IMG/VR virus record: IMGVR_UViG_3300049846_001989
Location: 1-54,249 of that record
Length of the DNA stretch: 54,249 nt
Strand: one strand, 5' to 3'
Origin: a virus
Taxonomy: Duplodnaviria; Caudoviricetes
The stretch's first letter is position 1. Each line of letters opens with the position of its first letter. Below the pieces are notes generated by a model. The model was not told the origin of the DNA and searched no databases. It worked only from the letters and a program-made list of their open reading frames with translations. Both the position numbers and the translations under genes were made by a program. Shown one piece after another: positions 4,012 to 53,433 of the stretch.

Positions 4012-6354
4012 ATGAAGATCAATTTCCTGAGTGCGCAGTTCCCAATAACAAAGACTTACAGCCAGACCAGGTCAGGTAACATAAACAAGACGCCCTATCC
4101 CTTTGTTTATGAAGTAAATTCTTTCGAATACCAGGTCCCTACGCTCGAGGCCCTATTCCCCCTGATACAACAGCACGCGGGGCAAGGGCACTGTCTCCTG
4201 AAAGGCGAGCTGGCCCGCCCCCTCGTCTCCGAGTCCCGGGCTGGCAGCACTGACCCCAAGCAGAAGACCGAGTGGGTGTGCCTGGACCTGGACGGGATTG
4301 GCGGGTACTCGACCGTGGACCAGTTCCTCCAGGACGTGGGTTGTGGTGAGACGGACTACATCCTTCAGTGGTCTGCCAGCCAGGGCGTGGGCGGCGCCCC
4401 CGAACTGCGCTGCCACATCTTCATGATGCTCGACGCGCCCAGGACCCCCGAGTTCCTGAAGCGCTGGCTGATGACCCTGAATCTGACCTGCTCACGGCTC
4501 AAGGAGCAGCTCCGACTCACACGTACCAACTGCAGCTTACGCTGGGGGCTCGACATCACGACCTGCCAGAACGACAAGCTGCTATACATCGCACCACCGC
4601 TGTTCGAGAACATGGAAGACCCCCTGGCCGGACAGGCCCGAATCTCATTCCACAAAGGCAAGCGCCGGCGCCTAGCTATTGGCACCCAGGTCCTCGAACG
4701 TGAGGCCCTGAGGAACCTGTCAGACCAACGGATCAACGAGCTGCGTCTCGGCAGCAGCATGCCCAAGCGCAAGACCACGAAGTACAAGGTACAGGGCTCT
4801 GTGGAATACATGCAGAACCCGGACACGGCCACCGTGACGGACATCAAGATCGAACGTGGCTTTGTCTACCTGAACCTCAACGGCGGGGACTCCTGGGCGT
4901 ATTACCACCCGGAGAACAACCCGTCGTTTATATACAACTTCAAGGGCGAGCCAGTCTATAAAACTGACGAGCTCTTGCCCGAATACTGGGCCGAGATTGC
5001 CCGACGTGCCCAGGACTACCAGCCAGACACCTCTGGAACGATCTACCTGGCCTTCAGGGAGTTTCGGACCGGTAACTACTATAACGGCACCTTCGATGGC
5101 GAGACAAGCCGCCTGAACCTGGCCATGGCCAAGAACGAGACACAACTCAAGCACTTCCTCAAGCAGCACGGGCAGCCGGTAGGCGACTATGTACCTGACT
5201 GGGACCTGGTGTTCGACCCCCACAGCGAGATCACTCTCGATGTGATGAACCGCACCGTGAACACGTACGTACCAAGCGTGTACATGGAGGACCGCTCGCC
5301 CCCCAAGGTGACGACTATCCCTCCCGTGTGCAACAAGATCATCAGGCACGTACTGGGCGACGACGAGGAGTGTGTACTGCGCTTCCTCAACTGGCTGGCC
5401 TGTGTGGTGCAGTTCAAGGACCGGACAGGCACCGCCTGGGTCCTGCACGGCACGCAGGGGACGGGCAAAGGCCTGCTGTTCCACCATATCATTGCCCCCA
5501 TCCTCGGAGAGCACAACACCTCGGCCAAGCGGATGGAGGAGCTGGAGAGTGAGTTCACAGGCTTCGTAGAGAACAAGTTCGTCACGGCTATTGACGAGAT
5601 CGAGGTGGGCAGCTCGCTGTACCACGCCAAGATCACTGCCAAGCTCAAGAACCTGATCGTGGAACCGAGTATCTCGATCCGCAAGATGTACACTCCGGCA
5701 TATATGTCCCGGAACTACAACAACATGCTCTTCATGAGTAACCAGTCCGAGCCGCTACAGGTGTCGCCGGACGACCGCCGCTTCAACGTGGCTCCATACC
5801 AGTTCAACAAGCTCCAGATCACGACCACCGAGGTGGACTCGATCGAGAAAGAACTCAAGCAGATGTATGCGTACCTGATGCACTACCCGGCGAACCGCGA
5901 CATGGCTCGCACGCCGCTGATCAACCAGGCACGTGAGACATTGATAGACATCAGCCGGTCAGCCGTGGACGTCGTAAGTGACGCCCTGCTGGCAGGCAAT
6001 TTCGGATTTTTCTGGGATCAGCTCCCGTCACAAAAACCGCCGGAGAGTGGGGCGATAACCAACCCGAACCACTTCAAGTATATGCGGTATCGAGAGCTGC
6101 TCCTGGGCATACTGGAACGTACAGAACCCTGTGCCCTGTCACGGGATGACCTGTACACCATGTATGACTGGTGCGATGGCAAGGTACCATCAAGCCCCAA
6201 CAAGTTCACGGCCCTGCTCAAGCATCACCGTATTCACTTGACCCCTGTCTGGGTGGGCAAGCGGACAACTCGAGGGATTGAAGTACAGTGGGACTTCTCA
6301 GATAAAGAGTGGGTAGCGGCCTTGAAAGAAGAAGTCAAAAACAACACAGTCTGA
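4012..6354 (+). CDS. Primase/polymerase-SF3 helicase fusion (NrS-1-like / DUF5906 C-terminus)
   Basis: N-terminal LDLDG and CH motifs of prim-pol type; Walker A GTQGTGKG, Walker B IDE, DDRRF. Confidence 0.85.
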   Translation: MKINFLSAQFPITKTYSQTRSGNINKTPYPFVYEVNSFEYQVPTLEALFPLIQQHAGQGHCLLKGELARPLVSESRAGSTDPKQKTEWVCLDLDGIGGYSTVDQFLQDVGCGETDYILQWSASQGVGGAPELRCHIFMMLDAPRTPEFLKRWLMTLNLTCSRLKEQLRLTRTNCSLRWGLDITTCQNDKLLYIAPPLFENMEDPLAGQARISFHKGKRRRLAIGTQVLEREALRNLSDQRINELRLGSSMPKRKTTKYKVQGSVEYMQNPDTATVTDIKIERGFVYLNLNGGDSWAYYHPENNPSFIYNFKGEPVYKTDELLPEYWAEIARRAQDYQPDTSGTIYLAFREFRTGNYYNGTFDGETSRLNLAMAKNETQLKHFLKQHGQPVGDYVPDWDLVFDPHSEITLDVMNRTVNTYVPSVYMEDRSPPKVTTIPPVCNKIIRHVLGDDEECVLRFLNWLACVVQFKDRTGTAWVLHGTQGTGKGLLFHHIIAPILGEHNTSAKRMEELESEFTGFVENKFVTAIDEIEVGSSLYHAKITAKLKNLIVEPSISIRKMYTPAYMSRNYNNMLFMSNQSEPLQVSPDDRRFNVAPYQFNKLQITTTEVDSIEKELKQMYAYLMHYPANRDMARTPLINQARETLIDISRSAVDVVSDALLAGNFGFFWDQLPSQKPPESGAITNPNHFKYMRYRELLLGILERTEPCALSRDDLYTMYDWCDGKVPSSPNKFTALLKHHRIHLTPVWVGKRTTRGIEVQWDFSDKEWVAALKEEVKNNTV

Positions 6355-18574: not shown

Positions 18575-21500
18575 TTATAGCACCTTGGCGGGCAGGAACG
18601 TGTGGGTAGCGAACTGTTCCCAGTTGCCCTGGCCGGCCCGCATCAGGTTCTCCAGGGTGGGGCCGAACTCCACATTCATAAGCCCGTCGCCCGGCTGCGG
18701 CCCGAAAAACGCCCCCTCCCGGCCAGTGATGCCGGCCCGGTTCAGACCGTGCTGCATATAGTCCGCCCAACCCCAGTTCGCAGTACTGGGCCCCCCGAAC
18801 AGTGACCACTTGACCATATCGGTAGCGATCATCAGTGGTACGCCAGCCATCAGGTACGCCATCGGCCTCCAGTTGCCCTTGCCCAGCTGGTTTACACCCC
18901 GCTGCAGCAGGACTTTGTCGAAGGCGTAGGCGAAGCGCTTCATGTGAGCCAGCAGGGCGAAGCGGGGGTCAGCCATCCACGTGGGCTGATGAGCCGCATT
19001 CGGGTGCAATACGGCGCTTTCCACGAAGCGGTACACGGCCCTGGACATGCTGTCCGAGTTCACAATCGGGTCGCCGTCCTCGTCAAACTGCATATTCTTC
19101 ACGTCCTGCGCGTTCAGGCCTAGCTCCTTGAGCGCCGGCGGGTTGGCCAGGTTCTCTTTTATGTACTTCAGGCCGGCCCGGGTGGCGGCTACGCGCATGC
19201 TGTTGTTGAAGGCCTGCATGCCGTTGACTTTGAAGAACACGCTATTGATCTTGCGGTTCACCTGACCCATGCTCATGGCCATGCCGGCCATGGTCTGGGC
19301 AGCCACGTCGTCCTGTATCGCGCCGACCATTTCAGCCAGCTCGCGGTATTTGTCGGGCGACTTGCTGAATACCCGGCGGATGTCTTTCAGGGCCTGCAGG
19401 TATGCCCTGCCAGCGTCGGACAGCTTGCCAGACCGGGCAGCTATGGCCAGCGGGTCGATGAACTGCGAGAACACGGCCAGCGGGAGCATGGCGGTATTCT
19501 GGAGTGTCATGGCAGCACCTGTAGCGGTGCGCATCAGCGGGGTCAGCGCGTGCTGCTGGAGTGTGCCCTCGACTGCCTGCACTGCCTTGCCTGCCTGCTC
19601 GATCTCGCGCTCTGTAGCGCCCTGCTCGCGTGCCTTGTCCATCAGGTCCTTGATCACAGCCCCGTCGTCGTTGAACATGCGGGCGTATTCCGTGCGGTGC
19701 ACGCCGGCTCGGATGTAGTTCTCCAGTATGTAGCTGATGTCGTCGTGCTGGAACTTGACGAACTTGTGCGCGTTCTTCGGGGTGATGAACTTCATCTGCC
19801 GCTCTTCGTGTGAGGCAGCGAACGGTGTGTACCCGAGGTGGTGCTCGTTCTCGGCCAGGTCGATCTGGCCAGACCCGTGCAGGATGTTCTGGACGATGTT
19901 GTCCGCCGCGAGCAGGTCCATGTTGCCTTCGTCGATCAGCAGCTGGCGGAACTCGTCCGGGCGGTCAGCGATGGCTGAAGCGTCCCAGCTACGCGGAAAG
20001 TAGTCCTTGACCTGACGGACTTCGATTCCGGAATCGCGCATATACCGGTAGAAGTTATCCAGCAGCTCGCGCACGGCTTTTTCAGCCGGCGAGGTGGCTG
20101 GCTGCATGGCCTGCAGGTTCTTCATCGCTTCGTGCAGCTCTTCCTTGGAGAACTCCTCCAGCGTCTTGCCCATCGCCACGTTCCAGCGGCCCATCATCCG
20201 GCCGCGTTGTTCGACGAAATCGGTACCCGCACCCTGGTCGTTCACTTCCTTGTAGAGCATATCGGCCAGCTCGGTCAGGGCCGGGACGTTAGCCCGGCGC
20301 ATGTTCTCCAGGCCAGTGTTGACTGCTTTGTAATACAGGTCTGCCACCGGGCCGGCGACGCTTTCGAACTTGTCGCGCATGCTCTGGCCCATGATCGTGC
20401 GCATGGCTGTCGGGGCAGTCCTCGGGTTGCTCAGCTTGCCGTTGTACAGGGCCATGAAGAACCGGTCGGCCTGCTGCGATTCAGACAGTACACCGACCAG
20501 GTCGCGCAGGAACTGCAGGACCTTGCGGAACACGGTGTCTGTCTCCGGGTTCACCAGCTTGCGGATCTCGGGGTCGGCTACCCACATCTGGAACAGGTAC
20601 GCCACGCGCTCCTCGGGATCAGCCATGACCTGCTCGATTTTCTGCACGTTGGCCCGGGCGATTTCAGCCTCGGACATACCCGCGCGCTGTTCGGCGCTTA
20701 GCATACCGCCCGCGTCGAATAGGCGGCGTTTGACAGCGCTGAGTACGGCTGGACGCGACGCTGCGGCTTCGATCCGGGCCTTGAGCTGCCGCACTTCACG
20801 GGTACTGCCCAAGGCGTGCCACACAGCGTGCAGGGCCTCGTGGTGCGCTACGCTCATCGGGTTCACCGCGTCGATTGCCACCTCGATGATGCGCTTCTTG
20901 TTCGCTTCGGAGCGGAACTCGCCCGAACCGCCCAGTTGTGAAGCCAGGCGGTTGAATTTGACATCAATCTCCTTGCCGGCGATCCGGTAAATCTCCTGGA
21001 ACATCTTCTCACGCAGCGCAGCGCGGTCTTCACTGATCGTCGTGAATTCCCCGTCTATGCCGTCAGGTGACTGCTCATTTTTCTTTACGGTCGAGGTATT
21101 GTTCCCACCCTTTTTTTCTGTGGATACGCCGGCCTCTGCTTTCGCCGCATTTCTAGCGGCCTGTTCAGCCAGGAGTGCGCGCATACGGGCGCGACGCCCT
21201 GCCGGGGAGTTCGGGCTAGGTTCCCGCTTTTGTTCTGTACGCACTTGTCTAGCGACGGGTTCGGCAGTTCTTACCGCCGTGTCGGGCGCAGGCTTGGCGT
21301 ATTTATTAACAAGCGCGTCGGACTTTTTCTTCAGTTCGTCGATGCGGGCGGTAGAATTCTCTACGCCCTCCAAGGACTTGATCTCAGCCTGATACCCCTT
21401 CCACAGGTTCCGGTCTCTCTGTGTCGCGCGCTCGGTAAAATACGCCACCGCGTTTTCAACCCCCTGCCTACCTTCGGCAGACTTCATCCGCGCACGTGCA

Positions 21501-24500
21501 CGCTCTGCTGGAGTGGTCGTACCTTTGCCGGGGGGGTTTTTAGGTTCGACGTAACGGGTCTGCGGCGTCGTTTCACGGTCTGAGCGCGTCAACAGCTCTA
21601 TTTCTGCCTCAGCAGCCTGCCTACGCGCCGTAATCGAGTTCCCCCTAAATTTTTTCCGCTCGGCTGGAGTACTAAATTTTTCCGAAACCTTATCAAGCGC
21701 CAACAGCTCGGCACGCAACTCTGCCAAGCGTTTTGAAACCCCGGTCTCCTTTGTGTCCTGCATATCAACGCGATTTTCTACTAGCGGATCAGGGTTAGCC
21801 CCAATGTCCGCAGCAACTTTGGCGCGATATGAACCGCCCTCGTTAAACTTGGCGTCGAACTCCTGCTGCTTGTTCGCCAGGTTCTTTTCCAATTCAAGGA
21901 GCAGGGGCTCGTCTACCATGGGGGCGCTTTTAACAGCGGCGATGCGCTCTTGCACGGCCTCGATGTTGGCAGCGGCGTCAGACTCGCGGGCTTGGTCCAG
22001 CTCGTTGAACATCTCCGTCTCTGTAGTACCAGTGATGACGTCACTACGGTCTTCCGCATATGGGAACGCCTCAGCCAGCTCGCGGCGGACAATGGCGCGC
22101 ATGGCCAGAACATTGGCGCGCGGATCGTAGTTTGTAGTACCACGAGTAGCGTCCCGTTCAGCAGCGCGATTGGCTTGTGAGAGCGCTAAGAGCGAAGCCT
22201 CTAGCCGGAATTGACCAGCGCGTTCTACTGGGCGCTCTCCAGGCGCAGTTGTGTAAGGCCGCATACCGTACCCAGCGAGATCTGCGGCCAACTTGTCAAC
22301 ATACTCCTCGCGCGCCTTGTCGTTTCGCAGTTTTGTAAAACTCTTCTCCGACACTTTCGCGAGCTGCTTGGCTAATACCATGCGGACTGCCTGCTGGCGA
22401 ACAGACGCTGGGGCGTTGCGCAACTTCTCTTGTGTTGGGTCTTGCATGGCGATGTCGATCGCTTCGGCAGTAGATTTGGCGCCACCGTTTTTCGCCCGCT
22501 TAAACGCGGCCTCGAAAGGCCCGGCCACGTCTGTGCCTATATTCTGGCGATATTGTCTGGCCAACTCGGTGTAAGCAGTGTTTTCGGGGCCGAAAGCATG
22601 CTCTACGTCAGCGGCGTAATTCTTCACGCGAGCCTGGACGTCACGACGCAGAAAGTTTGCTTCCTTCTCTACGAATTTGGCTTTTTCAAGCGTCGTTCCG
22701 CGTTTCGGACCGACATCCTCCACAGCTGGCTTCGGCGCGCGCTTCTTCGCATCAGACTTCAGCGCCAGGTCGCCCCAGCGCAGTACTTTTCCGTTCGAAG
22801 CGGTATGTAGTATTGTGTCGGGTGGGACATCTGCATTCATCGCACCGTCGCGAATGACGTCGATCTTGACCGGCTCACCAGCCTCGTTCTTGCCAGTCAG
22901 CTGCAGGCCAGTCAGGTCTTCGCGAGCAATGAGTCCGGTCAGCACCCGCATGAATTTCTCGGCCGGCTTATACTCCCGGTCGGTGGTGATATTGCCGACA
23001 CGCGTGCGGCTCATCATCAACTGGGTAGACAAGTTTACGGGGCGCGACTTACCTTCGCCATCAGTGAAGAAGGCTTTCAATACGGCGCCTTTTTCGTCCG
23101 CGCCGCTACCCGCCATGAAATCGCCCAGCTCGCGGTTTGACATCGTCGCTGTCTGTGAATCCCCACGACCCGCCCCGGTCTGCACCGGCTCTATGTTCTG
23201 AACATCGACGTTCAGCTTGTCCATGTAGCTGTTATCGCCGGTGCGCGCCTTGGCGATAGCGTCATCCAGCGTGTTGATCAGGTTCGTCGTGTGCTCGATT
23301 TCCGGCTTGGCCGCTTCCTGATCCTTGGCTCTCAGCAGGTTGTTCAGGTGGCGTTCTTCACCGCGACGCGCGCGGACGAGCTCCATAACCGGCGTGGTGT
23401 CGTCGGGCATGTACCGCTGGAAGTAGTCCTTACCAGACACGCGCATGCGGTTATCTTCCAGCTGCTGCGGGGTGGTGAGTGGTTGGTCGGCCAGTGTAAT
23501 AGCCCTGTGCGGGGCATTACGCGGCCCAGCAGCGTAGGCGCCGGGTTCTACGGCGTTGATTCCGTCGAGCGGAGAAACCGGTGTTTCTGACCCACCGCCT
23601 TCTTCGTCTACACTGAGACCGGCTTTTCTAAGCGCCGCCTGCATGGCGCTTTCGATCTCAGTGCCGGCCTGCAGGTTCATCTTGCTGACCGCACCTCCCG
23701 CCGACGTCACCCAGCTGTTTAACGCATCCCCGGCTGCGGTAACTCCACGCGCAGCTACGTCTTTTGCCGTGCCCAACCCTTGTTTTGCCATCTGTTTGGA
23801 CAGTTCGCCGATGCGGTTTGCACCGAGTTCGAGAACTGCGTTTCGTATGTCGCTCACTGCGTTTTCGTCGAGGGCGCTTTCACCTGTCAGAATTTGAAGC
23901 ATATACTGTTGCGTAGTTACGTCCCCAGCTTGTTCGGCCAGCTGGCGGGCGATGTCTGCCTGCATCAGCGTTTCGCTCAGTTTTTTCTTCTCGGTGAGTC
24001 CTAGCTTGGCATTCCATTCAGGTTTGTCTGCCAGATAGAAGTTGAGCAGCTCTGCCTTGGCCCTCTCGCGTTCGGCACCAAACTGTGGCACCAACGTCTG
24101 TTTACCCTCAGTAGCCTGGCGGATACCCTCCAGTGTTTCTACCAGAACATCCGGGTTATATAAAGCGTGTAGAGCCGGAAACTTATCCGCCACAAACAGC
24201 GCGTCGTTCTTGGCAGCCTGCGCCAAGTTTTTGATGATCCCCGCGGTCGCGGCCAGGCCGGGGTTGGCTTGCACCGTTTTGTTGATCGCTTCCATCGTCT
24301 TGGAAGCCAGACCCTGGGTTGCCTCGGGCGTAGTCTTGAGCGCATCCATACCTTGGGCGGCCAGTGCTTTGGCCTTGTTCACGCCGGGTTGGGCCATGTT
24401 CACGCCGGAAGCGATGGCCTGGCGGGCAGCGTCGGGCACTGTGGCCAGGGCTGCGTTGCCGCCGGCGCCGGCAGCAGCTACGCCGCCACCTTGCAGGGCC

Positions 24501-25348
24501 CCGCCGACGGCAGATTCGCCCAGCTGCCACATACCTTGCGTAGAGGTTGGGTCGAAGTCTGCGCCCCCCATCTGCTCGATGGTCATCGCTGTGTTGGCGT
24601 CCTGCGCAGCTTCCGGGATGGCCTCGGCGGCGGTACCGGCGACTGTGGTAGTGATAGGCGAACGGGGCCCGCCGAGAAGGGCTTTTTTTGCGCCCCGCAG
24701 TGCACCGGAGGCTATCAGACCGGGGCCGACGTCCACGGCAGTATTTTGCAGGGCGGCGGTGCCTGCAGACGACAATACTTCGCCGGGGGAGGACTCGAAC
24801 TGCTGACGGACCGTCGGATCGGCGTACATCTGGTTCAGTACGTCGCCCTTGTTCATTCCGTAACCAGAGGCAGCACCGGCGACCAAGGCGCCGGGCACAC
24901 CGGCCAACAACTTACCGGCGGCGCCAGCGGCGACTTGCGGCAACAGGTTTACTGGCGCGCCACCGATTGTCTCGGCGGCGTAATCTAGTAAGTTGTTGTT
25001 TTCGTAGGCATTTCGCAGACCGCCGACGCTGTTTTCGGCGCTGGCCTGCGCTTTGGTCTGCGTCTGTTGCAGGGCGTCGGTCAAAACCTTCTCTGCATAC
25101 GGGTCCTGAGCCACGCGCGCTTTCAGCAGGGCGCCTAACAGCTCACCTTGTTGCGCCTGTTGAACCGCGGTGTTGAAACCGCGCTCGAGGGAACCGGCGG
25201 AGCGCAGCGCGCCTAGCTGCTGGGCCTGGGCGGCGTCGGCTTGCTGCCGAATTGCGGCGTCGGCCGCGGCGGCGTCGACCGCGTTTTGTTGTTGCACCAG
25301 TGAGGTGGCTGCGAGCGGGTTGAACTGGCGCAGGATTTCGTTGGCCAT
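18575..25348 (-). CDS. Giant internal virion (ejection) protein with a zincin-like HExxH motif
   Basis: 2257 aa, Ala-rich and helical, last gene of the structural operon; VAHHEALH...EERVAYLF; YFPRSWD motif. Confidence 0.75.
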   Translation of the reverse strand: MANEILRQFNPLAATSLVQQQNAVDAAAADAAIRQQADAAQAQQLGALRSAGSLERGFNTAVQQAQQGELLGALLKARVAQDPYAEKVLTDALQQTQTKAQASAENSVGGLRNAYENNNLLDYAAETIGGAPVNLLPQVAAGAAGKLLAGVPGALVAGAASGYGMNKGDVLNQMYADPTVRQQFESSPGEVLSSAGTAALQNTAVDVGPGLIASGALRGAKKALLGGPRSPITTTVAGTAAEAIPEAAQDANTAMTIEQMGGADFDPTSTQGMWQLGESAVGGALQGGGVAAAGAGGNAALATVPDAARQAIASGVNMAQPGVNKAKALAAQGMDALKTTPEATQGLASKTMEAINKTVQANPGLAATAGIIKNLAQAAKNDALFVADKFPALHALYNPDVLVETLEGIRQATEGKQTLVPQFGAERERAKAELLNFYLADKPEWNAKLGLTEKKKLSETLMQADIARQLAEQAGDVTTQQYMLQILTGESALDENAVSDIRNAVLELGANRIGELSKQMAKQGLGTAKDVAARGVTAAGDALNSWVTSAGGAVSKMNLQAGTEIESAMQAALRKAGLSVDEEGGGSETPVSPLDGINAVEPGAYAAGPRNAPHRAITLADQPLTTPQQLEDNRMRVSGKDYFQRYMPDDTTPVMELVRARRGEERHLNNLLRAKDQEAAKPEIEHTTNLINTLDDAIAKARTGDNSYMDKLNVDVQNIEPVQTGAGRGDSQTATMSNRELGDFMAGSGADEKGAVLKAFFTDGEGKSRPVNLSTQLMMSRTRVGNITTDREYKPAEKFMRVLTGLIAREDLTGLQLTGKNEAGEPVKIDVIRDGAMNADVPPDTILHTASNGKVLRWGDLALKSDAKKRAPKPAVEDVGPKRGTTLEKAKFVEKEANFLRRDVQARVKNYAADVEHAFGPENTAYTELARQYRQNIGTDVAGPFEAAFKRAKNGGAKSTAEAIDIAMQDPTQEKLRNAPASVRQQAVRMVLAKQLAKVSEKSFTKLRNDKAREEYVDKLAADLAGYGMRPYTTAPGERPVERAGQFRLEASLLALSQANRAAERDATRGTTNYDPRANVLAMRAIVRRELAEAFPYAEDRSDVITGTTETEMFNELDQARESDAAANIEAVQERIAAVKSAPMVDEPLLLELEKNLANKQQEFDAKFNEGGSYRAKVAADIGANPDPLVENRVDMQDTKETGVSKRLAELRAELLALDKVSEKFSTPAERKKFRGNSITARRQAAEAEIELLTRSDRETTPQTRYVEPKNPPGKGTTTPAERARARMKSAEGRQGVENAVAYFTERATQRDRNLWKGYQAEIKSLEGVENSTARIDELKKKSDALVNKYAKPAPDTAVRTAEPVARQVRTEQKREPSPNSPAGRRARMRALLAEQAARNAAKAEAGVSTEKKGGNNTSTVKKNEQSPDGIDGEFTTISEDRAALREKMFQEIYRIAGKEIDVKFNRLASQLGGSGEFRSEANKKRIIEVAIDAVNPMSVAHHEALHAVWHALGSTREVRQLKARIEAAASRPAVLSAVKRRLFDAGGMLSAEQRAGMSEAEIARANVQKIEQVMADPEERVAYLFQMWVADPEIRKLVNPETDTVFRKVLQFLRDLVGVLSESQQADRFFMALYNGKLSNPRTAPTAMRTIMGQSMRDKFESVAGPVADLYYKAVNTGLENMRRANVPALTELADMLYKEVNDQGAGTDFVEQRGRMMGRWNVAMGKTLEEFSKEELHEAMKNLQAMQPATSPAEKAVRELLDNFYRYMRDSGIEVRQVKDYFPRSWDASAIADRPDEFRQLLIDEGNMDLLAADNIVQNILHGSGQIDLAENEHHLGYTPFAASHEERQMKFITPKNAHKFVKFQHDDISYILENYIRAGVHRTEYARMFNDDGAVIKDLMDKAREQGATEREIEQAGKAVQAVEGTLQQHALTPLMRTATGAAMTLQNTAMLPLAVFSQFIDPLAIAARSGKLSDAGRAYLQALKDIRRVFSKSPDKYRELAEMVGAIQDDVAAQTMAGMAMSMGQVNRKINSVFFKVNGMQAFNNSMRVAATRAGLKYIKENLANPPALKELGLNAQDVKNMQFDEDGDPIVNSDSMSRAVYRFVESAVLHPNAAHQPTWMADPRFALLAHMKRFAYAFDKVLLQRGVNQLGKGNWRPMAYLMAGVPLMIATDMVKWSLFGGPSTANWGWADYMQHGLNRAGITGREGAFFGPQPGDGLMNVEFGPTLENLMRAGQGNWEQFATHTFLPAKVL

Positions 25349-37063: not shown

Positions 37064-37066
37064 GAG

Positions 37067-37417
37067 TTACCTCGAAGCGTCTACGATCAGCGTGATGGTC
37101 AGGGGGCCGCCGGTTTCGGAGGCGTCAGATACAAAGCGAATGTGCTTCATCGAGTACAGCTGATATGGGCGGGTTTCGTGCCACAGCGCGGTGGCGCCAG
37201 TCCCGATCTCGAACGGCGTCGTACCGTAATCTGTGATCCCATACCAGGTGGACCCGTCCAGGGAAGCTTGGGCGGTTAGCTTGGTACCGACCGTCGCCGG
37301 AGTGATAACACCGACGATCGTCGGGCTTCTGCGGATGGCCGGGTCGGCGTTCTGAGAGAAATCGTATGAAGTGCTCTCCGTCCCGTTGTCTGCGATAGTC
37401 AGGTTGATGTGCTGCAT
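37067..37417 (-). CDS. Small beta-rich hypothetical (virion?) protein
   Basis: GAGG RBS; QASLDGSTWY motif. Confidence 0.65.
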   Translation of the reverse strand: MQHINLTIADNGTESTSYDFSQNADPAIRRSPTIVGVITPATVGTKLTAQASLDGSTWYGITDYGTTPFEIGTGATALWHETRPYQLYSMKHIRFVSDASETGGPLTITLIVDASR

Positions 37418-37426
37418 GGCCGTTCC

Positions 37427-38038
37427 TCAAATAGTTGCGGGGATCTTGTTCAAGGTCCCCATCCACCCGGCCAGTGTACATTTTCTGTCGAGCATTGGGA
37501 AGGCGCTGCAGTGTACTTTGATCGGGGCGCCGTCGGCGTCCCGCAGCGAAAACTCGGCTGTAAACTCCCGCTCCTGGCTTATGGCATCCAGCCAGTCGCT
37601 GTATACGCTGACGCGGTCTGCGGGCGACAGGGTGTTCACCCAACCATTGCCCGTCAACTCGCTCTGCGAGCGCCCAGTCCAGCGGGCGAAGGTGCGGTTT
37701 ACGTGGATAAACTCGCCTGCGGCGTCCGCCTCGAATACGGCCATCGGGCTGTCCATGCACAGCAGTTTTGCGCGCTGTTCGGTCAGGATCATGCGGGTTT
37801 CAATGCGGTCGACGGCGTCGCGCAGGCTGGATCCGCCGTTGGGTGTGAGCTGGTGCTTGATCTCCTCGATATTAGCGAGGACCGACGTCAGGTTGCGCAT
37901 GTATCGCGCTGTCGGGGACAGGACAGTTTTCCAGAGGGTGATCGCTGCGGTTACAGCCGCTGCGGCGGTTATTAACCCGGCAGCCCAGTGATTCAGGTCC
38001 AACGGGCTCATCTGTCCTACTCCCGAGTTAGTCGTCAT
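37427..38038 (-). CDS. Membrane-anchored PAS-domain protein in the lysis cassette
   Basis: One TM helix, coiled coil with PNGGSSLRDAVDRIE, then PAS: SPMAVFEADAAGEFIHVNRTFARWTGRSQSELTGNGWVNTLSPADR...W...EFSLRDADG...GWMGT. Confidence 0.85.
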   Translation of the reverse strand: MTTNSGVGQMSPLDLNHWAAGLITAAAAVTAAITLWKTVLSPTARYMRNLTSVLANIEEIKHQLTPNGGSSLRDAVDRIETRMILTEQRAKLLCMDSPMAVFEADAAGEFIHVNRTFARWTGRSQSELTGNGWVNTLSPADRVSVYSDWLDAISQEREFTAEFSLRDADGAPIKVHCSAFPMLDRKCTLAGWMGTLNKIPATI

Positions 38039-38388
38039 TTGGAGGCTGGCTCCACAGTATGTAAGTCACCAACGCTGCTGCTGTCACCAGCATCAACGCC
38101 GCTACCGGATACCAGAACTGTGCTTCGCTCGGAGTCAGGTGCATGCTTACATACCTCTACCAGGGCCTCGTGCCGTATCCGGCACCTCTCGTACATGGTA
38201 CCCCAAATAATCATGGTATCCAAGACTGCCTGGCCGTCAACGCCCTGTAGATCCGGTAAGCGTGGGCACGCTGCCGTAGTGTTGGCCGGCGGCCGCTCCA
38301 CCTTTGGCGGCGTTGATAAGCTGCACGCCATCAGGGTCAAGACACTGGTTGCGATACACAGGTTTTTCGATAATCTTGTTGCGGTCAC
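38035..38388 (-). CDS. Rz1: o-spanin (Rz1-like lipoprotein)
   Basis: Lipobox LTLMA-C, Pro-rich linker, YERCRIRHEALV; overlaps the i-spanin in another frame; GTG start inferred. Confidence 0.75.
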   Translation of the reverse strand: MTATRLSKNLCIATSVLTLMACSLSTPPKVERPPANTTAACPRLPDLQGVDGQAVLDTMIIWGTMYERCRIRHEALVEVCKHAPDSERSTVLVSGSGVDAGDSSSVGDLHTVEPASK

Positions 38389-38608
38389 GGAACACCACCC
38401 ACGTTTTGTTATCAAGGACAGACAGCTTGTCTTCAAGGGTTTTGGAAATTGCGTGTTCGCGCTCGCGCTCGGCCTGGGCGACCAGCTCAGCACCACGAAC
38501 TTCGGCGAGTAGTAGTGAATCCGTGCGGTACTGGTTTACTTTCCACCCGGCGGCGAAACAAAGCGCTGCGGCCAGCAAGCCGACGACGATTTTAAGGTTG
38601 GCGCCCAT
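38237..38608 (-). CDS. Rz: i-spanin (Rz-like)
   Basis: N-terminal TM (FAAGWKV), coiled coil, KIIEKPVYRNQCLDPDG. Confidence 0.8.
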   Translation of the reverse strand: MGANLKIVVGLLAAALCFAAGWKVNQYRTDSLLLAEVRGAELVAQAEREREHAISKTLEDKLSVLDNKTWVVFRDRNKIIEKPVYRNQCLDPDGVQLINAAKGGAAAGQHYGSVPTLTGSTGR

Positions 38609-38609
38609 A

Positions 38610-39152
38610 TCAAGCCTCGTTCTCCGAAACCGCGCCAGATGGCGCCAAGTGGATGGCGCGAACTGACTCGGGTTTGGCGCGATACGCGCAACGCGAGGCC
38701 AGGATGCGGGACTTGGGGATGCGTGTGATGCACACACAATCGCGCTGGTTGCCGCCCAGGACGTGGAAACACTCGTTATCTTCCCCGACATACAGGCCGA
38801 CGTGGCCGCTAACGTCCCCGCGCGCAAAAACGAGGATGCAGCCGAGTTCTGGCTGCGTGCTTGTACCCCATTTGGCCCAGTCGCGGGCCCACAACGGGTT
38901 CTTCGGCAGGGGTTTGCCGGCGCGTTTGGCAATGATGGCCGCGAACAGCCCGCACCACGGGGTTTCTGTACGCTTGTACACGTTGTCGAGACCAAGTTCC
39001 TTGGCCCAGGACAGCACTTCGGGGTTGTCCTTATATGCTTTATCTCTCGCCGGGAGCCGTTCTACAACGCCGTACAATTTCAGCGCTTCGATCAACATCC
39101 TCGGCGCCGTTTCATTAGCCAGCCAGGCGTATTGTGCGGGGAGCTCAGTCAT
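38610..39152 (-). CDS. Endolysin, TIGR02594 / NlpC-P60-like peptidase
   Basis: ETPWCGLF, ARDWAKWG, GHVGLY and VLGGNQ motifs; directly upstream of the spanins. Confidence 0.85.
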   Translation of the reverse strand: MTELPAQYAWLANETAPRMLIEALKLYGVVERLPARDKAYKDNPEVLSWAKELGLDNVYKRTETPWCGLFAAIIAKRAGKPLPKNPLWARDWAKWGTSTQPELGCILVFARGDVSGHVGLYVGEDNECFHVLGGNQRDCVCITRIPKSRILASRCAYRAKPESVRAIHLAPSGAVSENEA

Positions 39153-39155
39153 GCG

Positions 39156-40253
39156 TCATGGGTCCAGCGTTATTTGCGTACGTTCGCTCCCCACCATATC
39201 CGCGGTCACGCGGGCGGTGGCTCCATCCTGCGACTTAAACACTACGGTCGCTGTATTGTTGCCATTATCCGTTATTGTTGTTTCGCCGGCAACTGCGGCG
39301 AGGATAATACGCATTACATCCCCAGCAGACAGAGCGCCTTCGATGTTTCCGACCCACGGGTCCCCCGCCGCGCCCGCGGCGTTTAGTTTTTCGCCCATAG
39401 ACCCGGTATCGTCGAAGGTGGCGCTAACCGCATTCCACACGGCTGCTGCCAGGTTCTGAGGGGACAGTTCTGTGTACGGAGTTATATCCCCGGACAAGGC
39501 GCCGGTCGCCCGTATCGTGGTGTTGGTCGAGACAGTGGCGGCGGCCGAGGCGACAAGATCTACGACCCCGCCCAACAACACTGCGGGAGCGGTAATAGTT
39601 ATGTCGGCCGAGCCGACTGCGTTTTTTCCCGCCGCCGCGGCGGCGTCGACCGAAAACGCTGAGGCGGCCGCCCCATCCAGCACTGCTACCCCCATTAACA
39701 GGGACGTTGGGGAAAACGAAACCGTGGCCTCCCCAAGTGCATAGAGCGCGGCGGCTAAGTTAGCTGACGAAGAAAACGAGAAAGTGTCTGAGGCCGTTAT
39801 TGGTGCGACGGCTGTCAGATCTGCGGCCGGCGTATGTGAGGTTGCAGCCGCGCCGCCCATAAAGCCAAGAGCCAAGAGCTCCGCAGCTTGTGTTACGGTC
39901 AGAGTCGCTGTGCCGGCCCCGAAAGTTAGTGCTGAAATGTCCGCCGCTTGTGACACAGTTATTGTTGTGTCAGCGAGTGCGTTCCGCCCCCCGGCTAGCA
40001 CAAGCGTACCGGTCATACCGTGGTCTGCAGTGCGGGCTGCGGACAGGCCGCCTGCTACACGGGGTTGGGCCCACGCGTACTGCTCACTATATCCGTTCTG
40101 AAAACCGCTCTTGTTAGTTTCGGACGACGCCGCGTCCCCAACATAAAAATTCTGTATTATCTGGGGGCGAAGGTATGCGTGTGGATTAGAAAACGCCGCG
40201 CCGAAATCGGCGGCAGTGTTTCTGTTAACTTGCGCGTAGTTAGCCAGCAGCAT
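39156..40253 (-). CDS. Ala-rich tail-associated structural protein
   Basis: Ala/Thr repeats; LAAAVWN...GSMGEKL motif; start reassigned to ATG 40253. Confidence 0.65.
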   Translation of the reverse strand: MLLANYAQVNRNTAADFGAAFSNPHAYLRPQIIQNFYVGDAASSETNKSGFQNGYSEQYAWAQPRVAGGLSAARTADHGMTGTLVLAGGRNALADTTITVSQAADISALTFGAGTATLTVTQAAELLALGFMGGAAATSHTPAADLTAVAPITASDTFSFSSSANLAAALYALGEATVSFSPTSLLMGVAVLDGAAASAFSVDAAAAAGKNAVGSADITITAPAVLLGGVVDLVASAAATVSTNTTIRATGALSGDITPYTELSPQNLAAAVWNAVSATFDDTGSMGEKLNAAGAAGDPWVGNIEGALSAGDVMRIILAAVAGETTITDNGNNTATVVFKSQDGATARVTADMVGSERTQITLDP

Positions 40254-47241: not shown

Positions 47242-47469
47242 TCACTCCCCTTTCTTTTCAGACAACAGGCCGCCGAACGCTGCGGCGACGACCGAAGCGA
47301 CCAGCGACAGATTCTGAACGAGGCTCGGAATAGCCAGGTCCAACTGGGCCTGCTGCTCCGGGGTAATCACACCGAACAGGGCCAGCATGGCTGCCAGGGC
47401 CGCGTATGAGGACGGCTCCCGCAGGCGGGCTACGAAATACGTAACGATTTTTTGAGCTTTCGTAGACAT
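47242..47469 (-). CDS. Putative holin
   Basis: Two hydrophobic helices, RLREPSSYAAL motif, charged C-terminus EKKGE; GGAGG RBS. Confidence 0.6.
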   Translation of the reverse strand: MSTKAQKIVTYFVARLREPSSYAALAAMLALFGVITPEQQAQLDLAIPSLVQNLSLVASVVAAAFGGLLSEKKGE

Positions 47470-47633
47470 GACGTCCTCCACGTGTGTAATTTTCGGCAAA
47501 AACTGCGCATGTTCGCAAAATCATCTGTCCAGACCCCCGCCACGAAGGCGGGCAGCAGGGTCAGGCAGATACATAATAGCGTAAAAACCCCGAGCACGTA
47601 CAGTAGTGCCTGCACGGCCCGGGTTATCACCAT
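47430..47633 (-). CDS. Small membrane protein
   Basis: Long hydrophobic stretch then a basic tail; start uncertain. Confidence 0.4.
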   Translation of the reverse strand: MVITRAVQALLYVLGVFTLLCICLTLLPAFVAGVWTDDFANMRSFCRKLHTWRTSCLRKLKKSLRIS

Positions 47634-47643
47634 GTCGACCTGA

Positions 47644-48621
47644 TCAGAGTTCATCACCGCGCATCTTGGCCAGATCGGCTTCCGGGATCTTGGCAAACTG
47701 CTCCAGCGTCATCCGCTTGATCGTCGGCGCTGCCGGCGGGGCTGCAGTCTTGCCACGAAGGTCCGTAGGCTGGGGCTGGGCTGCGGCGGCTGCGGCTGCC
47801 TTGCGGCGGGCCTGCTCCTCGCGGCTGGCGGGTGCGTTGGCCGCTTGTTTGGCCGGTTCCTGCGGCGCACCAGCGACATATTTAACTGCCCGCTGCAGCG
47901 CCTGCACCTGCTCCATGCCCGAGAGCATGAGCGAGCGCATCAGGCCTGCAACCTCGTCAGCCATGACCTGGTCATACTCATCCGCCCGGTCCGGGTTCAG
48001 CGCCGGGTACTGCTGCTCGATACTGGCCAGCGTGGACTCATACTTCAGGGTGCCGAGCGTGCGGGCGCGTGCGGTCTCTGCCAACTGGTTGGCCCGCTCC
48101 GTCTGGATATACTCCTGGAGCTGGTTAATCTGCTTGCGGACTTCACGAGCCTGCTCGCGCTCACCGTCTACCAGCAGCTCCTCGTATTTGTCCTGCAGGG
48201 TATCCAGCTGCTGGGCAGCTGCGGCCACCACATCGGGCTTGGCCGGGGCGGCCTGCTGGCGCTGGGCGGCCTCGAAGGCGGCCAGGCGGGCTTCGGCCGC
48301 CTCTGCACGGGCGCGTTCGCGGCCTACAGCCTCGTCGAAGCGGGTTTTAGGGATACGGATGCGGGCTTCGCGCGCTATCCGGGCCTCCTCCGCCTCGCGC
48401 TCAATGCGCTCTTCGTCCGTTTCCTCGCCTTCAGCATCAAGATCCGGACTCGCGCCCGCGTCATCGTCTGTTTCGACCGGTTTGGCGTCATCGTCGACCT
48501 CCAGATCGGTGTCTGTGGGGGTAAAGTCGTTACCAAACGGGTCGTCAACTACCGGAACGGCCGAACCGCCCAGGTCTGTGCCGTCGCCGGCGGGAGAAAG
48601 CAAGAAATGGCGGGTTTTCAT
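47644..48621 (-). CDS. Capsid scaffolding protein
   Basis: Acidic N-terminus, IPKTRFDE motif, coiled coil, C-terminal LAKMRGD; lies between portal and MCP. Confidence 0.8.
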   Translation of the reverse strand: MKTRHFLLSPAGDGTDLGGSAVPVVDDPFGNDFTPTDTDLEVDDDAKPVETDDDAGASPDLDAEGEETDEERIEREAEEARIAREARIRIPKTRFDEAVGRERARAEAAEARLAAFEAAQRQQAAPAKPDVVAAAAQQLDTLQDKYEELLVDGEREQAREVRKQINQLQEYIQTERANQLAETARARTLGTLKYESTLASIEQQYPALNPDRADEYDQVMADEVAGLMRSLMLSGMEQVQALQRAVKYVAGAPQEPAKQAANAPASREEQARRKAAAAAAAQPQPTDLRGKTAAPPAAPTIKRMTLEQFAKIPEADLAKMRGDEL

Positions 48622-50799: not shown

Positions 50800-53433
50800 T
50801 CACGAGGTCATGTGGGTCAGGTTGCCACCCGACACCGTGTTGAGTATCTTATCACGCCACGATGGTACCTTGGGCGGGTCCGGAAGTCTAGGAGGCGCCG
50901 CATTTGTTATCAGCCTGATCGCCCAGGCCAGGGCATCCACGATGTCGTCGTGCCCGCCACCAGGGAACTGCAGCATCTCCTGTAGGAGTTCAGTCTTCCA
51001 CGGCGGGTCCATCGGGAACGATACTTTCCCCTGCTGCATCCGGCCCTGCAGGGGCCTGGCCCGGGCCACTTTATCCGTCAGCGGTTTCATCACTTCGATG
51101 GTAGGAAACACCTTCCGCTCATCCATGCGCTTGCGCAATAGCGGCTCAATTGACCGCCAGATCTGGCCGTCTTCGACCCCGACTACGTAGCGTCCACCGG
51201 ATATCCGCATGTAGCGCTCGGCTACCGTCACGATGGAATCCACGATCTCGAAACTGTCGCCCCTGAAGCGTACGAGATCCGCCACGTATGCGTGGTCATA
51301 GTCGTCGTGCGCGATCGTCGCCCCTACCGTGAAGTCGTTCTGCTGCTTCAAGCCAATCGCGAAGTCCCAGGCGGTGTAGTAATTCACGTGCTCGCCGAGA
51401 GGCGGCAAGTGCTCGAACCTGAAGTGCTCCTTCCTGAAGTACAGGCCTTCGTCGGGGACAGGCGCCTGCTGGTAGAGGGCAGACCATATCCGCGGCTGCA
51501 GGTTGGCCCGTATCTTGTGCAGGGCGTTTGTGGAGTAGCGCTCCTCGTGCAGCGCCTGGTCTGGACCGCGCAACAGGGTGTAGTGTTCCGGGGCGTCCTT
51601 GATCGGCTCTGCCGTCCGGATGATCTCATGCCTGGGCGACTCCTCGTCGCGGTACTCATACGTAGCACTGAGGGCCGGGTACAGCACCACCTCGAACTGG
51701 TCAGCCATCGGATCCAGGCGCATGCGCTGCTGCAGCCTGCCGGCGAGGTCGTCGTAGTTCCACCACGTCTCGATGAGCAGTATCCCGCCGCCAGGGGCGA
51801 CACGCGTCGAGGCTGTGGACTGGTACCACTCGTCGATCAGCTGGCGGCGGTCTGCGCTGTCCGCCTCCTCCATATTCTTAATTGGGTCGTCTATAATTAA
51901 GATATGGCAGCCCTTGCCAGTTAATCCGCCCCCCACGCCGGCAGCTACGAATCCGCCGCCCGCGGTCGTGGCCCAGGTCTCTGTGGCCTGTGACTCGGGG
52001 TCCAGCTGGGTGTCCGGAAAAATCGAGTGGTAGTAGGGATCGCGCAGCAAGCCCCGAACCTTGCGCGAGAAAATCATGGGAAGGTCCAGGTTGTACCCCG
52101 CATTGATTATCCCGTGCGTCGGATTGTGCCCCAGGTGCCAGGCGGGTAACCGGATCGAGGCCAGCTCGCTGTTATGCGTCGGGATCAGTGCCTCGCCAAC
52201 CAGGTACAGGCCGTCGGAGGAGACAACCTCGACGCACCGGGCGGAAAATGGCTCGACCCTGCGCACTGCGCGGACGGTCCGGTACTTGGGCCGGCCAGAC
52301 CGCGTCGGTATCTTGCGCTCCAGTGCGAGGCCCCCACCACTGCGGTCATAGGGGACCCAGCCGACCACCCAGTACCCGCCACCTCGGACCGTCGCACCAG
52401 ACCAGCGGATCTTTCTCTCGCGGCGGTCAGCCGGGCGGTACTGGATCGTCACCCGGTAGCCGAGGCTTCGGGCCAGGCGCCGGATATCGTAGGCCAGGCC
52501 GAGGACGTTCGTGCACACCCGGACCCTCCCGTCGCGCCTGCACAGTGACCCGTCTGTATCAACGATGCCGCCGAGCAGCTCGCGCCTGTGCTGTTCAGGC
52601 AGTGAGAAGTAGACTTCTGGTATGTGCTTACAGCCGAGTACGCCGAGTGCCCGCAGCTTGGCACGTATGTGCAAGAGGCACACATACTTGCAGCCCGTAT
52701 TCGCGTGTATTCGCACGGCACCGAATTCCTGGTAGGAAGGAAGACGTGCCAGGATCTTGTCCAGATCCTCGGGTGCGCCGCAAATCACCCCGGAGTCAGT
52801 CATCCCGTCACCGAGCCACACGCCCAGGGTGTAGGGGTCGACCGGGACCTTGGTATGCCGGCCGTGTAACGGGAAAGTCGGGGGGAGCAGCAGCTCGCCC
52901 CGGGTGCTCTTGGCCAGGATGTCGGGGAGCTCGCGGGTTTCGTAGGTGGCCCACTGCGCCCGGCGGCGATCGTAGACAGTCCACTCGTGGTTCTCGTGAC
53001 ACCTGATCTTCTCCCCGTCGGAGAACTCCACCTCACAGTCGCCCATGACCGGGTCGGCCACTTCCTTGATCACTACCGGTCGGCCACTCGGGTGGAAGAC
53101 CATGTCCCCGGGGAGCAGCTCGCCGTGGGTGATCCACCCTCGGGTCTGGGTGAAGACCGGGGTTTCGTCGTAGATGGCTTTTCCGTGGCGGGGAGGGACC
53201 AACAACATCAGCCGGGGGGACTTCTTCTCGGTCACCTCTCTGGAGAAGCGCTCGAGTCGAGCAGCCATGTCGTTGTGTACCCAACCCGCCTCGTACTCAG
53301 GGAGCGTGGACTTGGTAAAGTGGATTAGCCTGCGGCGGGACAGGATCCTCTTGGCCAGCTCTTGTTTTGCCAGGTCCCCCGGTGGGAGGGGTTGTTCCTG
53401 GTTCTCGTTATTGTCCGTTGGTGGTTGAGTCAT
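50800..53433 (-). CDS. terL: Terminase large subunit (intein-containing)
   Basis: Walker A PPRHGK|S split by the intein; Walker B IIDDP; ALYQQAP; nuclease AWDFA and HDDIVDAL motifs. Confidence 0.95.
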   Translation of the reverse strand: MTQPPTDNNENQEQPLPPGDLAKQELAKRILSRRRLIHFTKSTLPEYEAGWVHNDMAARLERFSREVTEKKSPRLMLLVPPRHGKAIYDETPVFTQTRGWITHGELLPGDMVFHPSGRPVVIKEVADPVMGDCEVEFSDGEKIRCHENHEWTVYDRRRAQWATYETRELPDILAKSTRGELLLPPTFPLHGRHTKVPVDPYTLGVWLGDGMTDSGVICGAPEDLDKILARLPSYQEFGAVRIHANTGCKYVCLLHIRAKLRALGVLGCKHIPEVYFSLPEQHRRELLGGIVDTDGSLCRRDGRVRVCTNVLGLAYDIRRLARSLGYRVTIQYRPADRRERKIRWSGATVRGGGYWVVGWVPYDRSGGGLALERKIPTRSGRPKYRTVRAVRRVEPFSARCVEVVSSDGLYLVGEALIPTHNSELASIRLPAWHLGHNPTHGIINAGYNLDLPMIFSRKVRGLLRDPYYHSIFPDTQLDPESQATETWATTAGGGFVAAGVGGGLTGKGCHILIIDDPIKNMEEADSADRRQLIDEWYQSTASTRVAPGGGILLIETWWNYDDLAGRLQQRMRLDPMADQFEVVLYPALSATYEYRDEESPRHEIIRTAEPIKDAPEHYTLLRGPDQALHEERYSTNALHKIRANLQPRIWSALYQQAPVPDEGLYFRKEHFRFEHLPPLGEHVNYYTAWDFAIGLKQQNDFTVGATIAHDDYDHAYVADLVRFRGDSFEIVDSIVTVAERYMRISGGRYVVGVEDGQIWRSIEPLLRKRMDERKVFPTIEVMKPLTDKVARARPLQGRMQQGKVSFPMDPPWKTELLQEMLQFPGGGHDDIVDALAWAIRLITNAAPPRLPDPPKVPSWRDKILNTVSGGNLTHMTS
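52171..53178 (-). mobile_element. 336-aa class 3 intein with LAGLIDADG homing endonuclease
   Basis: Starts with Ala (AIYDETPV) and ends PTHN|S; W in HENHEW, C in ARCVEV, T in PTHN; endonuclease motifs LGVWLGDG and LLGGIVDTDG. Confidence 0.9.

Follow-up and report, generated by a model that had tools for sequence, protein, structure and literature searches.

The lysis cassette and the PAS gene

The window analysed here is a linear viral DNA of 54,249 bases (Duplodnaviria; Caudoviricetes), the whole of the IMG/VR record IMGVR_UViG_3300049846_001989 (CheckV completeness 84%), and the subject of this study is a gene at 37427..38038 on its minus strand that encodes an N-terminal membrane helix, a conserved NGGSS motif and a C-terminal PAS domain (below, the PAS gene and the PAS protein). 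The minus-strand order endolysin, i-spanin, o-spanin, PAS gene, situated among structural genes, had been read from the letters alone in a preliminary description of the locus and is confirmed by matches to CHAP, phrog_1259, phrog_1152 and phrog_2425. The features of the cassette and of the PAS protein are as follows.

38610..39152, minus strand: endolysin, a CHAP/NlpC-P60-type peptidase (Pfam CHAP 5.9e-6, at 27.1 bits where the cut-off is 26; phrog_1259 1.9e-25)
38237..38608, minus strand: i-spanin of 122 amino acids with an N-terminal membrane helix (phrog_1152 'Rz-like spanin' 1.7e-20)
38035..38388, minus strand: o-spanin, a lipoprotein, with a GTG start at 38388 and overlapping the i-spanin gene (phrog_2425 1.2e-14; phrog_456 1.3e-3)
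37427..38038, minus strand: PAS gene (membrane helix, NGGSS motif, PAS domain), 203 amino acids from Met1 or 194 if from Met10 at 38011 (open reading frame, Pfam and model)
37931..37987, minus strand: N-terminal membrane helix of the PAS protein, residues 18-36 (hydropathy; helical in the model; predicted N-out/C-in)
37799..37843, minus strand: motif PNGGSSLRDAVDRIE, residues 66-80 (conservation; PNGGS loop in the model)
37442..37750, minus strand: PAS domain, residues 97-199, C-terminal (Pfam, AlphaFold2 and Foldseek)

The o-spanin carries the lipobox LMAC, as read from the sequence, and matches Pfam LysC at 4.5e-4, under the LysC cut-off. A hydrophobicity scan of the endolysin found no hydrophobic, membrane or signal-anchor-release (SAR) segment; having no export or SAR signal, the enzyme therefore requires a holin. 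The membrane proteins of the cassette are the two spanins and the PAS protein, with no others. A releasin, which in the phage Mu gp25 type works with a membrane-tethered SAR endolysin, is rejected as a reading of the PAS protein, as the endolysin has no N-terminal hydrophobic segment.

Two possible starts of the PAS gene, Met1 and Met10, had been named in the preliminary description, and both are present. The o-spanin stop and Met1 share an ATGA overlap, also pointed out there. A GGGAG Shine-Dalgarno sequence lies 8 nucleotides upstream of Met10 (38011), against GGAG 11 nucleotides upstream of Met1; the Met10 context is the better one, and close homologues begin near the Met10 position. Position 38011 may be the real start, judging from these signals, and if Met10 is used the ATGA overlap, present as it is, plays no part. 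The residues between the two starts (2-9, TTNSGVGQ) are uncharged. A dual-start holin/antiholin pair of the lambda type is not supported, since the two starts differ by no charge and the homologues start near Met10. The database entry for the gene begins at Met47 (157 amino acids) and omits the membrane helix; this call is too short, because the helix is conserved across the homologues. In another frame, a 38-amino-acid open reading frame (ORF) with one hydrophobic helix (38028..38144, minus strand) covers the junction of the o-spanin gene (3' end) with the first codons of the PAS gene.

Architecture of the PAS protein

The membrane helix is rich in Ala and Thr and of moderate hydrophobicity (Kyte-Doolittle 1.77 over 18 amino acids). 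No Lys or Arg precedes it and three occur in the 15 amino acids after it, a bias found in 38 of 38 family members. From these positive charges after the helix, an N-out/C-in topology is predicted, with the PAS domain in the cytoplasm. In the AlphaFold2 model (27 homologues; mean predicted local distance difference test score, pLDDT, 88.3), a helix spans residues 15-64, followed by the loop PNGGS at 65-69, a second helix at 70-95 and the PAS domain at 100-198, the last at a pLDDT of about 97. What had been described as a coiled coil containing the motif is indeed helical, and is better described as this helix, loop and helix. Residues N67, G68, G69, S71, R73 and D74 are invariant in all 27 of the sequences that were collected without the motif as bait.

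The single membrane helix and the complete PAS domain with no output domain, both proposed earlier, are borne out by hydropathy, Pfam and the model, and the PAS assignment holds in profile and structure comparisons alike. Four Pfam families are matched above their cut-offs, namely PAS_3 (44.1 bits against 25.6; 2.6e-11), PAS (42.8 against 22.6; 5.9e-11), PAS_9 (36.2 against 27) and PAS_4 (33.9 against 23.1), and in the model the PAS strands lie at 100-104, 110-113, 159-166, 172-183 and 189-198, with helices between them. Foldseek against the PDB gave PAS and LOV structures as top matches (3lyx, the FAD-PAS domain of NifL (2gj3) and short LOV proteins), with template modelling scores of 0.75-0.84, normalised by the target, and identities of 17-22%. 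A sequence profile search of the PDB returned generic PAS domains only (ARNT, 3mr0, phytochrome; the Aer PAS domain, 8dik, at 2.8e-4). Pfam and the model gave no further domain after the PAS domain, neither a kinase nor any other output domain. Aer and the NifL FAD-PAS domain share the PAS fold with the protein, and NifL (2gj3) and LOV are among its best structural matches; it differs from Aer and NifL in having no HAMP, kinase or other output domain and no recognised flavin-binding or LOV cysteine signature. Inspection by eye did not reveal the LOV-type NCRFLQ motif in the PAS domain. Most relatives, though not all, retain a cysteine in the strand '...VHCSAFP...'.

A phage family of membrane-plus-motif proteins

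The N-terminal module has no Pfam match. Residues 1-95 match phrog_9869 at 4.9e-7, the family in which gp52 of Streptomyces phage mu1/6 (2e-32) and P1312_040 of a Thermobifida phage (3.7e-24) also fall. Judged by these profile matches, membrane helix and motif together make up a separate phage family, phrog_9869. Its members share with the PAS protein the helix and a (P)N(G/S/A)G(S/G)SLRDAVNRIE motif, and they lie beside endolysin or holin genes. They differ in being 76-190 amino acids long and in having either little sequence past the motif or a coiled-coil end; the cultured members all lack a PAS domain. P1312_040 (L092 3668..4111) is mis-labelled 'sensory protein kinase CreC'.

The full protein, searched against a set of 5.8 billion proteins, gave 35 matches at E <= 1e-3 among 351 candidates: 31, the window's own entry included, have the helix-motif-PAS architecture and 157-233 amino acids, and four, of 117-120 amino acids, have helix and motif without PAS. 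With residues 1-95, the same set yielded seven unnamed matches as shorter relatives, and the ESM Atlas yielded no usable match. The motif pattern occurs in 464 stretches of IMG/VR, 206 of which encode relatives; among the best 80 of these 206, PAS-type sequences number 38, falling into 24 clusters at 60% identity, and the others are short forms of 76-130 amino acids. Across 185,579 prokaryote species (one genome each) the motif pattern found ten relatives, all short forms and mostly from Actinobacteria. A profile of the N-terminal module matched 4442 of 1.84 billion cluster representatives (50% identity) at E <= 1e-3, and 262 at <= 1e-10. The best 150 of the 4442 comprise 48 with PAS, 90 without PAS of at most 140 amino acids and 12 longer ones without PAS, with coiled-coil tails in most of those inspected; the PAS share of about one-third is biased upwards, because the search profile held many PAS-type sequences. 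In a protein of 209 amino acids, P0104, a non-PAS C-terminal region comes after the helix and the NGGSSLRD module.

A tblastn search of 50,697 phage records with the whole protein gave no match at E <= 1e-3. In short, the PAS-type architecture is common in environmental phages and absent from the cultured phages searched. The two top structural matches in BFVD are 'PAS domain' proteins of 205 and 195 amino acids from uncultured Caudovirales phages. Weak whole-length structural matches at ranks 27, 31 and 42 are 'GAF domain-containing' proteins of 205-236 amino acids from uncultured phages; other sensor domains may thus sit on similar helical anchors in phages.

The short forms were located by tblastn in eight cultured actinophage records, representing six phages after near-identical pairs were merged. 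Streptomyces phage mu1/6 has the endolysin gp50, the holin gp51, reportedly tested by experiment, and the phrog_9869 member gp52. TurkishDelight has endolysin, holin and then the member, and in Sonali the member is followed by endolysin and holin. The member overlaps an amidase gene in Thermobifida phage P1312, comes after minor tail genes in LiSara (near-twin Wheelbite), where its RefSeq name is 'holin', and has only hypothetical neighbours in BIM BV-113. In four of the six phages, then, the short form is the immediate neighbour of a gene annotated as endolysin or holin, and three of those four have a separate holin gene. In uncultured phages, the ORF beside the short form is like a D-Ala-D-Ala carboxypeptidase in locus L070 (1.3e-6), like an amidase in L078 (1.2e-7) and weakly like NlpC/P60 in L079; a 280-amino-acid ORF of L081 gave no Pfam or PHROG identification. 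These neighbours agree with the preliminary description, which had placed the motif in small membrane proteins of phage lysis regions.

The most frequent freshwater group, L038 together with 37 loci like it, has as neighbours of the short form a pair of small membrane ORFs and an ORF of 176 amino acids. The reading of this 176-amino-acid ORF as an endolysin was withdrawn: Pfam, PHROGs and a PDB sequence search were empty for it, and it is unlike the carboxypeptidase-like ORF of L070. In loci of this type the short-form gene is preceded and overlapped by a membrane ORF of 39 amino acids; its likeness to the ORF at 38028..38144 of the window may be chance.

Probable remote relation to LysF1b and LysA2b

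The link of the NGGSS module to CHARACTERISED proteins was examined by profile comparison with the LysF1b/LysA2b family, which is described in two papers from the same laboratory. According to the first (also in PLoS One, 2026), LysF1b (Mycobacterium phage Girr gp35; also NormanBulbieJr, F1 cluster) has one N-terminal helix, a predicted N-out/C-in topology and the Pfam domain DUF2746; deletion of lysF1b gave small plaques, altered lysis timing and a lower burst, and the two-helix protein LysF1a appears to require LysF1b for its activity (bioRxiv 10.64898/2025.12.04.692442; PMC13056207). The authors argue there that LysF1b alone supports lysis, triggered by energy poisons, and label it a new holin class, found mainly in phages of Gram-positive hosts (bioRxiv 10.64898/2025.12.04.692442; PMC13056207). 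The gene for LysA2b, gp30 of D29, lies far away from the lysins, in a set of minor tail genes, and its phenotypes are similar to those of LysF1b, according to the second paper (bioRxiv 10.64898/2026.08.27.747656). The authors' model is that a holin-like partner with two helices is activated by the one-helix protein.

D29 gp30 (2.8e-25) and Girr gp35 (3e-44) both fall in phrog_404 and in DUF2746 (PF10874), and the DUF2746 core ...EQVxNxHxTNLRDDIDEI... aligns with ...ELxPNGGSSLRDAIDRIE... of the NGGSS module. When 38 NGGSS modules were compared with 34 DUF2746 sequences by hhalign, the probability was 87.9% and E was 3.2e-6, over 37 columns across the motif. The real score was 35.7, against at most 16.0 for 58 of 60 column-shuffled DUF2746 alignments; the other two gave degenerate four-column alignments, which were treated as a program artefact. 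Reciprocal cross-matches by plain hidden Markov models reached 14-24 bits (best 24.1 and 21.8), and the protein from the window matched phrog_404 at 4.7e-4 with residues 1-95 and, weakly, at 2.4e-3 as a whole. The single sequence of D29 gp30 gave no significant match to the NGGSS alignment (probability 8.6%), and only the profile-profile comparison gave a signal. From these alignments, the NGGSS module is a probable, unproven remote homologue of DUF2746/phrog_404, a reading strengthened by the same topology being predicted for 38 of 38 members and by similar genomic surroundings.

The PAS protein resembles LysF1b and LysA2b in its one N-terminal helix with predicted N-out/C-in topology and basic residues right after it, in the following helix with a stretch like [ST][SN][LM]RDx[VIL]Dx[IL], and in the position of the gene in or near the lysis cassette, often with a four-base overlap with the preceding gene. 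It differs in that their charged C-terminal tail (DIGGLREELRTER...) is missing and a PAS domain stands in its place. The C-terminal domain of LysF1b and LysA2b consists of D, E, K, R or H to 30-50% or more, according to the papers, whereas segment 37-95 of the PAS protein does so to about 27%. Despite the action of the D29 and Girr members in lysis, the label 'minor tail protein' stands on hundreds of DUF2746 genes across many mycobacteriophages.

Candidate holin partner and comparison with T4 holin T

At a distance of 9 kb from the PAS gene, between a scaffold-like gene and the head genes, lies a pair of small ORFs:

47242..47499, minus strand: small ORF with two hydrophobic stretches, 75 amino acids from the ATG at 47469 (a homologue of 48% identity occurs in a related phage record, E 1.1e-21)
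47430..47696, minus strand: small membrane ORF overlapping 47242..47499 (ORF scan)

In the related phage record, a small membrane ORF likewise precedes the homologue of the 47242 ORF. The two ORFs are candidates for a holin, a two-helix partner or a holin/antiholin pair lying away from the endolysin. A holin at 47242 had been named in the preliminary description: the ORF does encode a small protein that is real and conserved and has two hydrophobic stretches, and the name holin, given without a family match, was a guess. Complex prediction of the N-terminal module with the 47242 ORF scored 0.00 against a mark of 0.32, a result that counts neither for nor against binding.

T4 holin T, a class III holin, has its N-terminus inside and a periplasmic domain, and is regulated through this soluble domain by the antiholin RI. 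The PAS protein is like T in having one membrane helix and a globular domain of similar size, and in T it is through the soluble domain that timing is set. However, the predicted topology of the PAS protein is the opposite, with the globular domain in the cytoplasm. The analogy to T drawn earlier fails on this point: the positive charges after the helix in 38 of 38 family members predict N-out/C-in, and a T4 T-like class III holin is rejected on this predicted topology. Sequence and fold searches gave no notable match to T either; Proteus phage holins of the T4 T class appeared in Foldseek at E 0.04-0.07 only.

A proposed lysis regulator with a PAS domain and its alternatives

On balance, we lean towards reading the PAS protein as a lysis regulator like LysF1b and LysA2b, tethered to the membrane, in which the short charged cytoplasmic tail has been replaced by a PAS domain. 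Late in infection, the protein would build up in the inner membrane with its N-terminus outside. The NGGSSLRD helix-loop-helix would then act on or co-assemble with a hole-forming partner, or would oligomerise, and the cytoplasmic PAS domain, by dimerising or by binding a metabolite, ligand or cofactor, would shift that step, so that lysis timing would follow host physiology. Speculatively, an energy or redox sensor would make sense in this place because holin triggering depends on membrane potential.

A number of observations weigh against such a role, among them the surroundings of the PAS-type genes. At 24 non-redundant loci, longest-ORF calling gave 142 ORFs of 60-1000 amino acids within 2 kb, which were scanned with Pfam and rescanned in three subsets, with the best 25 of 27 and the best 25 of 29 families considered in two of these. 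Among the matches listed, and with the window set aside, recognisable lysis genes occur within 2 kb in only five of the 24:

L004: GTA_holin_3TM 1.2e-26 and Peptidase_M15_3 1.8e-22
L007: Peptidase_M15_3 3.7e-10
L009: Amidase_2 2e-14, with an N-terminal helix, directly upstream of the PAS-type gene
L018: PG_binding_1 2.5e-12 (peptidoglycan-binding domain), preceded by two lipoprotein-like ORFs
L001/L002: homologues of both spanins

The other 19 loci, by our own ORF calls and again among the matches listed, have no Pfam-recognisable lysis gene within this distance. Their neighbours include terminases, an SU10-type adaptor, collagen-like or large structural and tail-like proteins, PhoH, thymidylate synthase, ribonucleotide reductase, glycosyltransferases or sugar-modifying enzymes and an integrase. 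On a rough estimate, five in 24 is a modest excess only, as a span of 4.6 kb is about a tenth of a genome of 40-60 kb. The relation to DUF2746 is open to objection as well: neither the whole protein nor residues 1-95 match Pfam DUF2746 at E <= 0.1, and because this model is unmatched the protein is not filed as a DUF2746 member; the link spans about 37 columns on a short motif and could reflect convergence; and the invariance in the 38-sequence alignment is partly by construction, the loci having been collected with NGGSSLRD. The LysF1b/LysA2b class is found mainly in phages of Gram-positive hosts, according to the papers, whereas the phage of the PAS protein has spanins and a host with an outer membrane. 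No two-helix partner lies beside the PAS gene, although the D29 pair is also apart, and neither 47242..47499 nor 47430..47696 has a Pfam or PHROG match. No cofactor-binding signature was recognised in the PAS domain, whose PDB profile and Foldseek matches are generic, and the sensing of oxygen, redox state or a ligand that was proposed earlier, as pure inference, is unsupported. Finally, experimental data on any phrog_9869 member were not found in the literature searched.

The preliminary description had made linkage of the homologues to lysis genes one measure of its lysis claim, and here the outcome is divided, with five PAS-type loci recognisably linked and 19 not; the N-terminal module shared with lysis-cassette proteins and the probable remote relation to LysF1b and LysA2b support a connection with lysis more strongly than could be seen from the letters alone. 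Since D29 LysA2b lies far from the lysins, distance from lysins leaves a lysis role possible. Small ORFs with a hydrophobic helix on the same strand are also about 2.9 times as frequent close to the PAS-type genes (24 of 132 ORFs within 2 kb) as beyond 3 kb (9 of 126; Fisher p = 0.009). At L009, the Amidase_2 ORF (5069..5776) has an N-terminal hydrophobic segment and could be a SAR-type endolysin.

The nearest relative fetched, L001/L002, is 53% identical in the PAS protein, 56% in the o-spanin and 44% in the i-spanin, and keeps the order i-spanin, o-spanin, PAS gene and a structural gene of 556 amino acids. Between its i-spanin and PAS genes, overlapping the o-spanin homologue, is an ORF of 200 amino acids (L001 5140..5742, L002 4654..5256), to which the HNH_3 (homing endonuclease-type) match is attributed. 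Such an ORF at the same junction indicates that the site tolerates insertions, and it bears on a different account, in which the PAS protein is membrane-tethered and does a job unrelated to lysis, such as interfering with host PAS sensor kinases, superinfection exclusion or reporting the state of infection, and its place after the spanins is incidental, accessory genes being commonly inserted at such points. The 19 loci without recognisable lysis genes, with their very different contexts, speak for this account, and PAS domains commonly heterodimerise. However, the N-terminal module is common to short proteins in lysis cassettes and aligns with the DUF2746 lysis regulators, and the one-helix lysis regulator of D29 is itself encoded far from the lysins, among tail genes. 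We regard a non-lysis job as unlikely, if still the most serious alternative.

Less probable again is that the PAS protein is itself the hole-forming one-helix holin, as the authors propose for LysF1b, with the PAS domain merely aiding oligomerisation. The cassette has no other membrane protein besides the spanins, its endolysin, without a secretion or SAR signal, needs a holin, and the F1-cluster paper argues that LysF1b alone supports lysis on triggering by energy poisons. Yet the helix is Ala/Thr-rich and only moderately hydrophobic, the conserved pair of small membrane ORFs at 47242..47696 could supply the holin, and the family members of mu1/6, TurkishDelight and Sonali adjoin a separately annotated holin. 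A place in the virion or tail, which might be suggested by the phrog_404 label 'minor tail protein' and by the several family members among tail genes, is very improbable for the protein: the label is a position-based annotation habit, the D29 and Girr members are genetically shown to act in lysis in the two papers, and a membrane helix with a cytoplasmic PAS domain is ill-suited to a tail protein.

The phage and the remainder of its genome

Replication genes (primase, helicase and DNA polymerase) occupy the first 17 kb on the plus strand, and the minus strand carries those for terminase, portal, major head protein and tail-like proteins. Identity of the major head protein is 54.6% with its counterparts in Pseudomonas phages KPP25 and phiR18 and 45% with the one in Acidovorax phage AP1; because of this resemblance a host with an outer membrane is indicated, which fits the spanins. 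A DNA search of positions 36000-40000 against phages gave two short endolysin matches only, both in Rhodobacter phages. A very large ORF of 2257 amino acids (18575..25348, minus strand) closes the structural block. In the large terminase subunit (50800..53433, minus strand; 877 amino acids), matches to the main terminase profiles begin only at about residue 420, and other terminase profiles cover 51-447; the protein could be duplicated, fused or intein-containing.

Conclusions

One-helix lysis regulators are already known; the NGGSS branch, the occurrence in a spanin-bearing phage and the PAS fusion were not found in print. Our literature search found no PAS-holin fusion in a phage, and likewise no relevant report for the NGGSS motif, among the best 20 of 36 papers listed for that motif, or for a lysis cassette with a PAS domain. 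The finding carries the recently described one-helix lysis regulators beyond actinophages, and phrog_9869, a large and unannotated family ('hypothetical', 'minor tail protein', 'sensory protein kinase CreC'), gains a name and a hypothesis. As a wider and more tentative proposal, many uncultured phages, with or without an outer membrane to cross, might have fused a cytoplasmic PAS domain to a conserved one-helix lysis trigger, as a clock gated by ligand, redox state or energy, and the NGGSSLRD helix-loop-helix might be the ancient effector common to a superfamily in which the DUF2746 lysis regulators of actinophages are included. Only in a few coliphages is the timing of lysis known in detail, and the inputs recognised so far are holin concentration, membrane potential and, for T-even phages, superinfection. 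A sensor in a membrane protein of the lysis cassette, if this is what the PAS protein is, would be a direct route from host physiology to the time of lysis.

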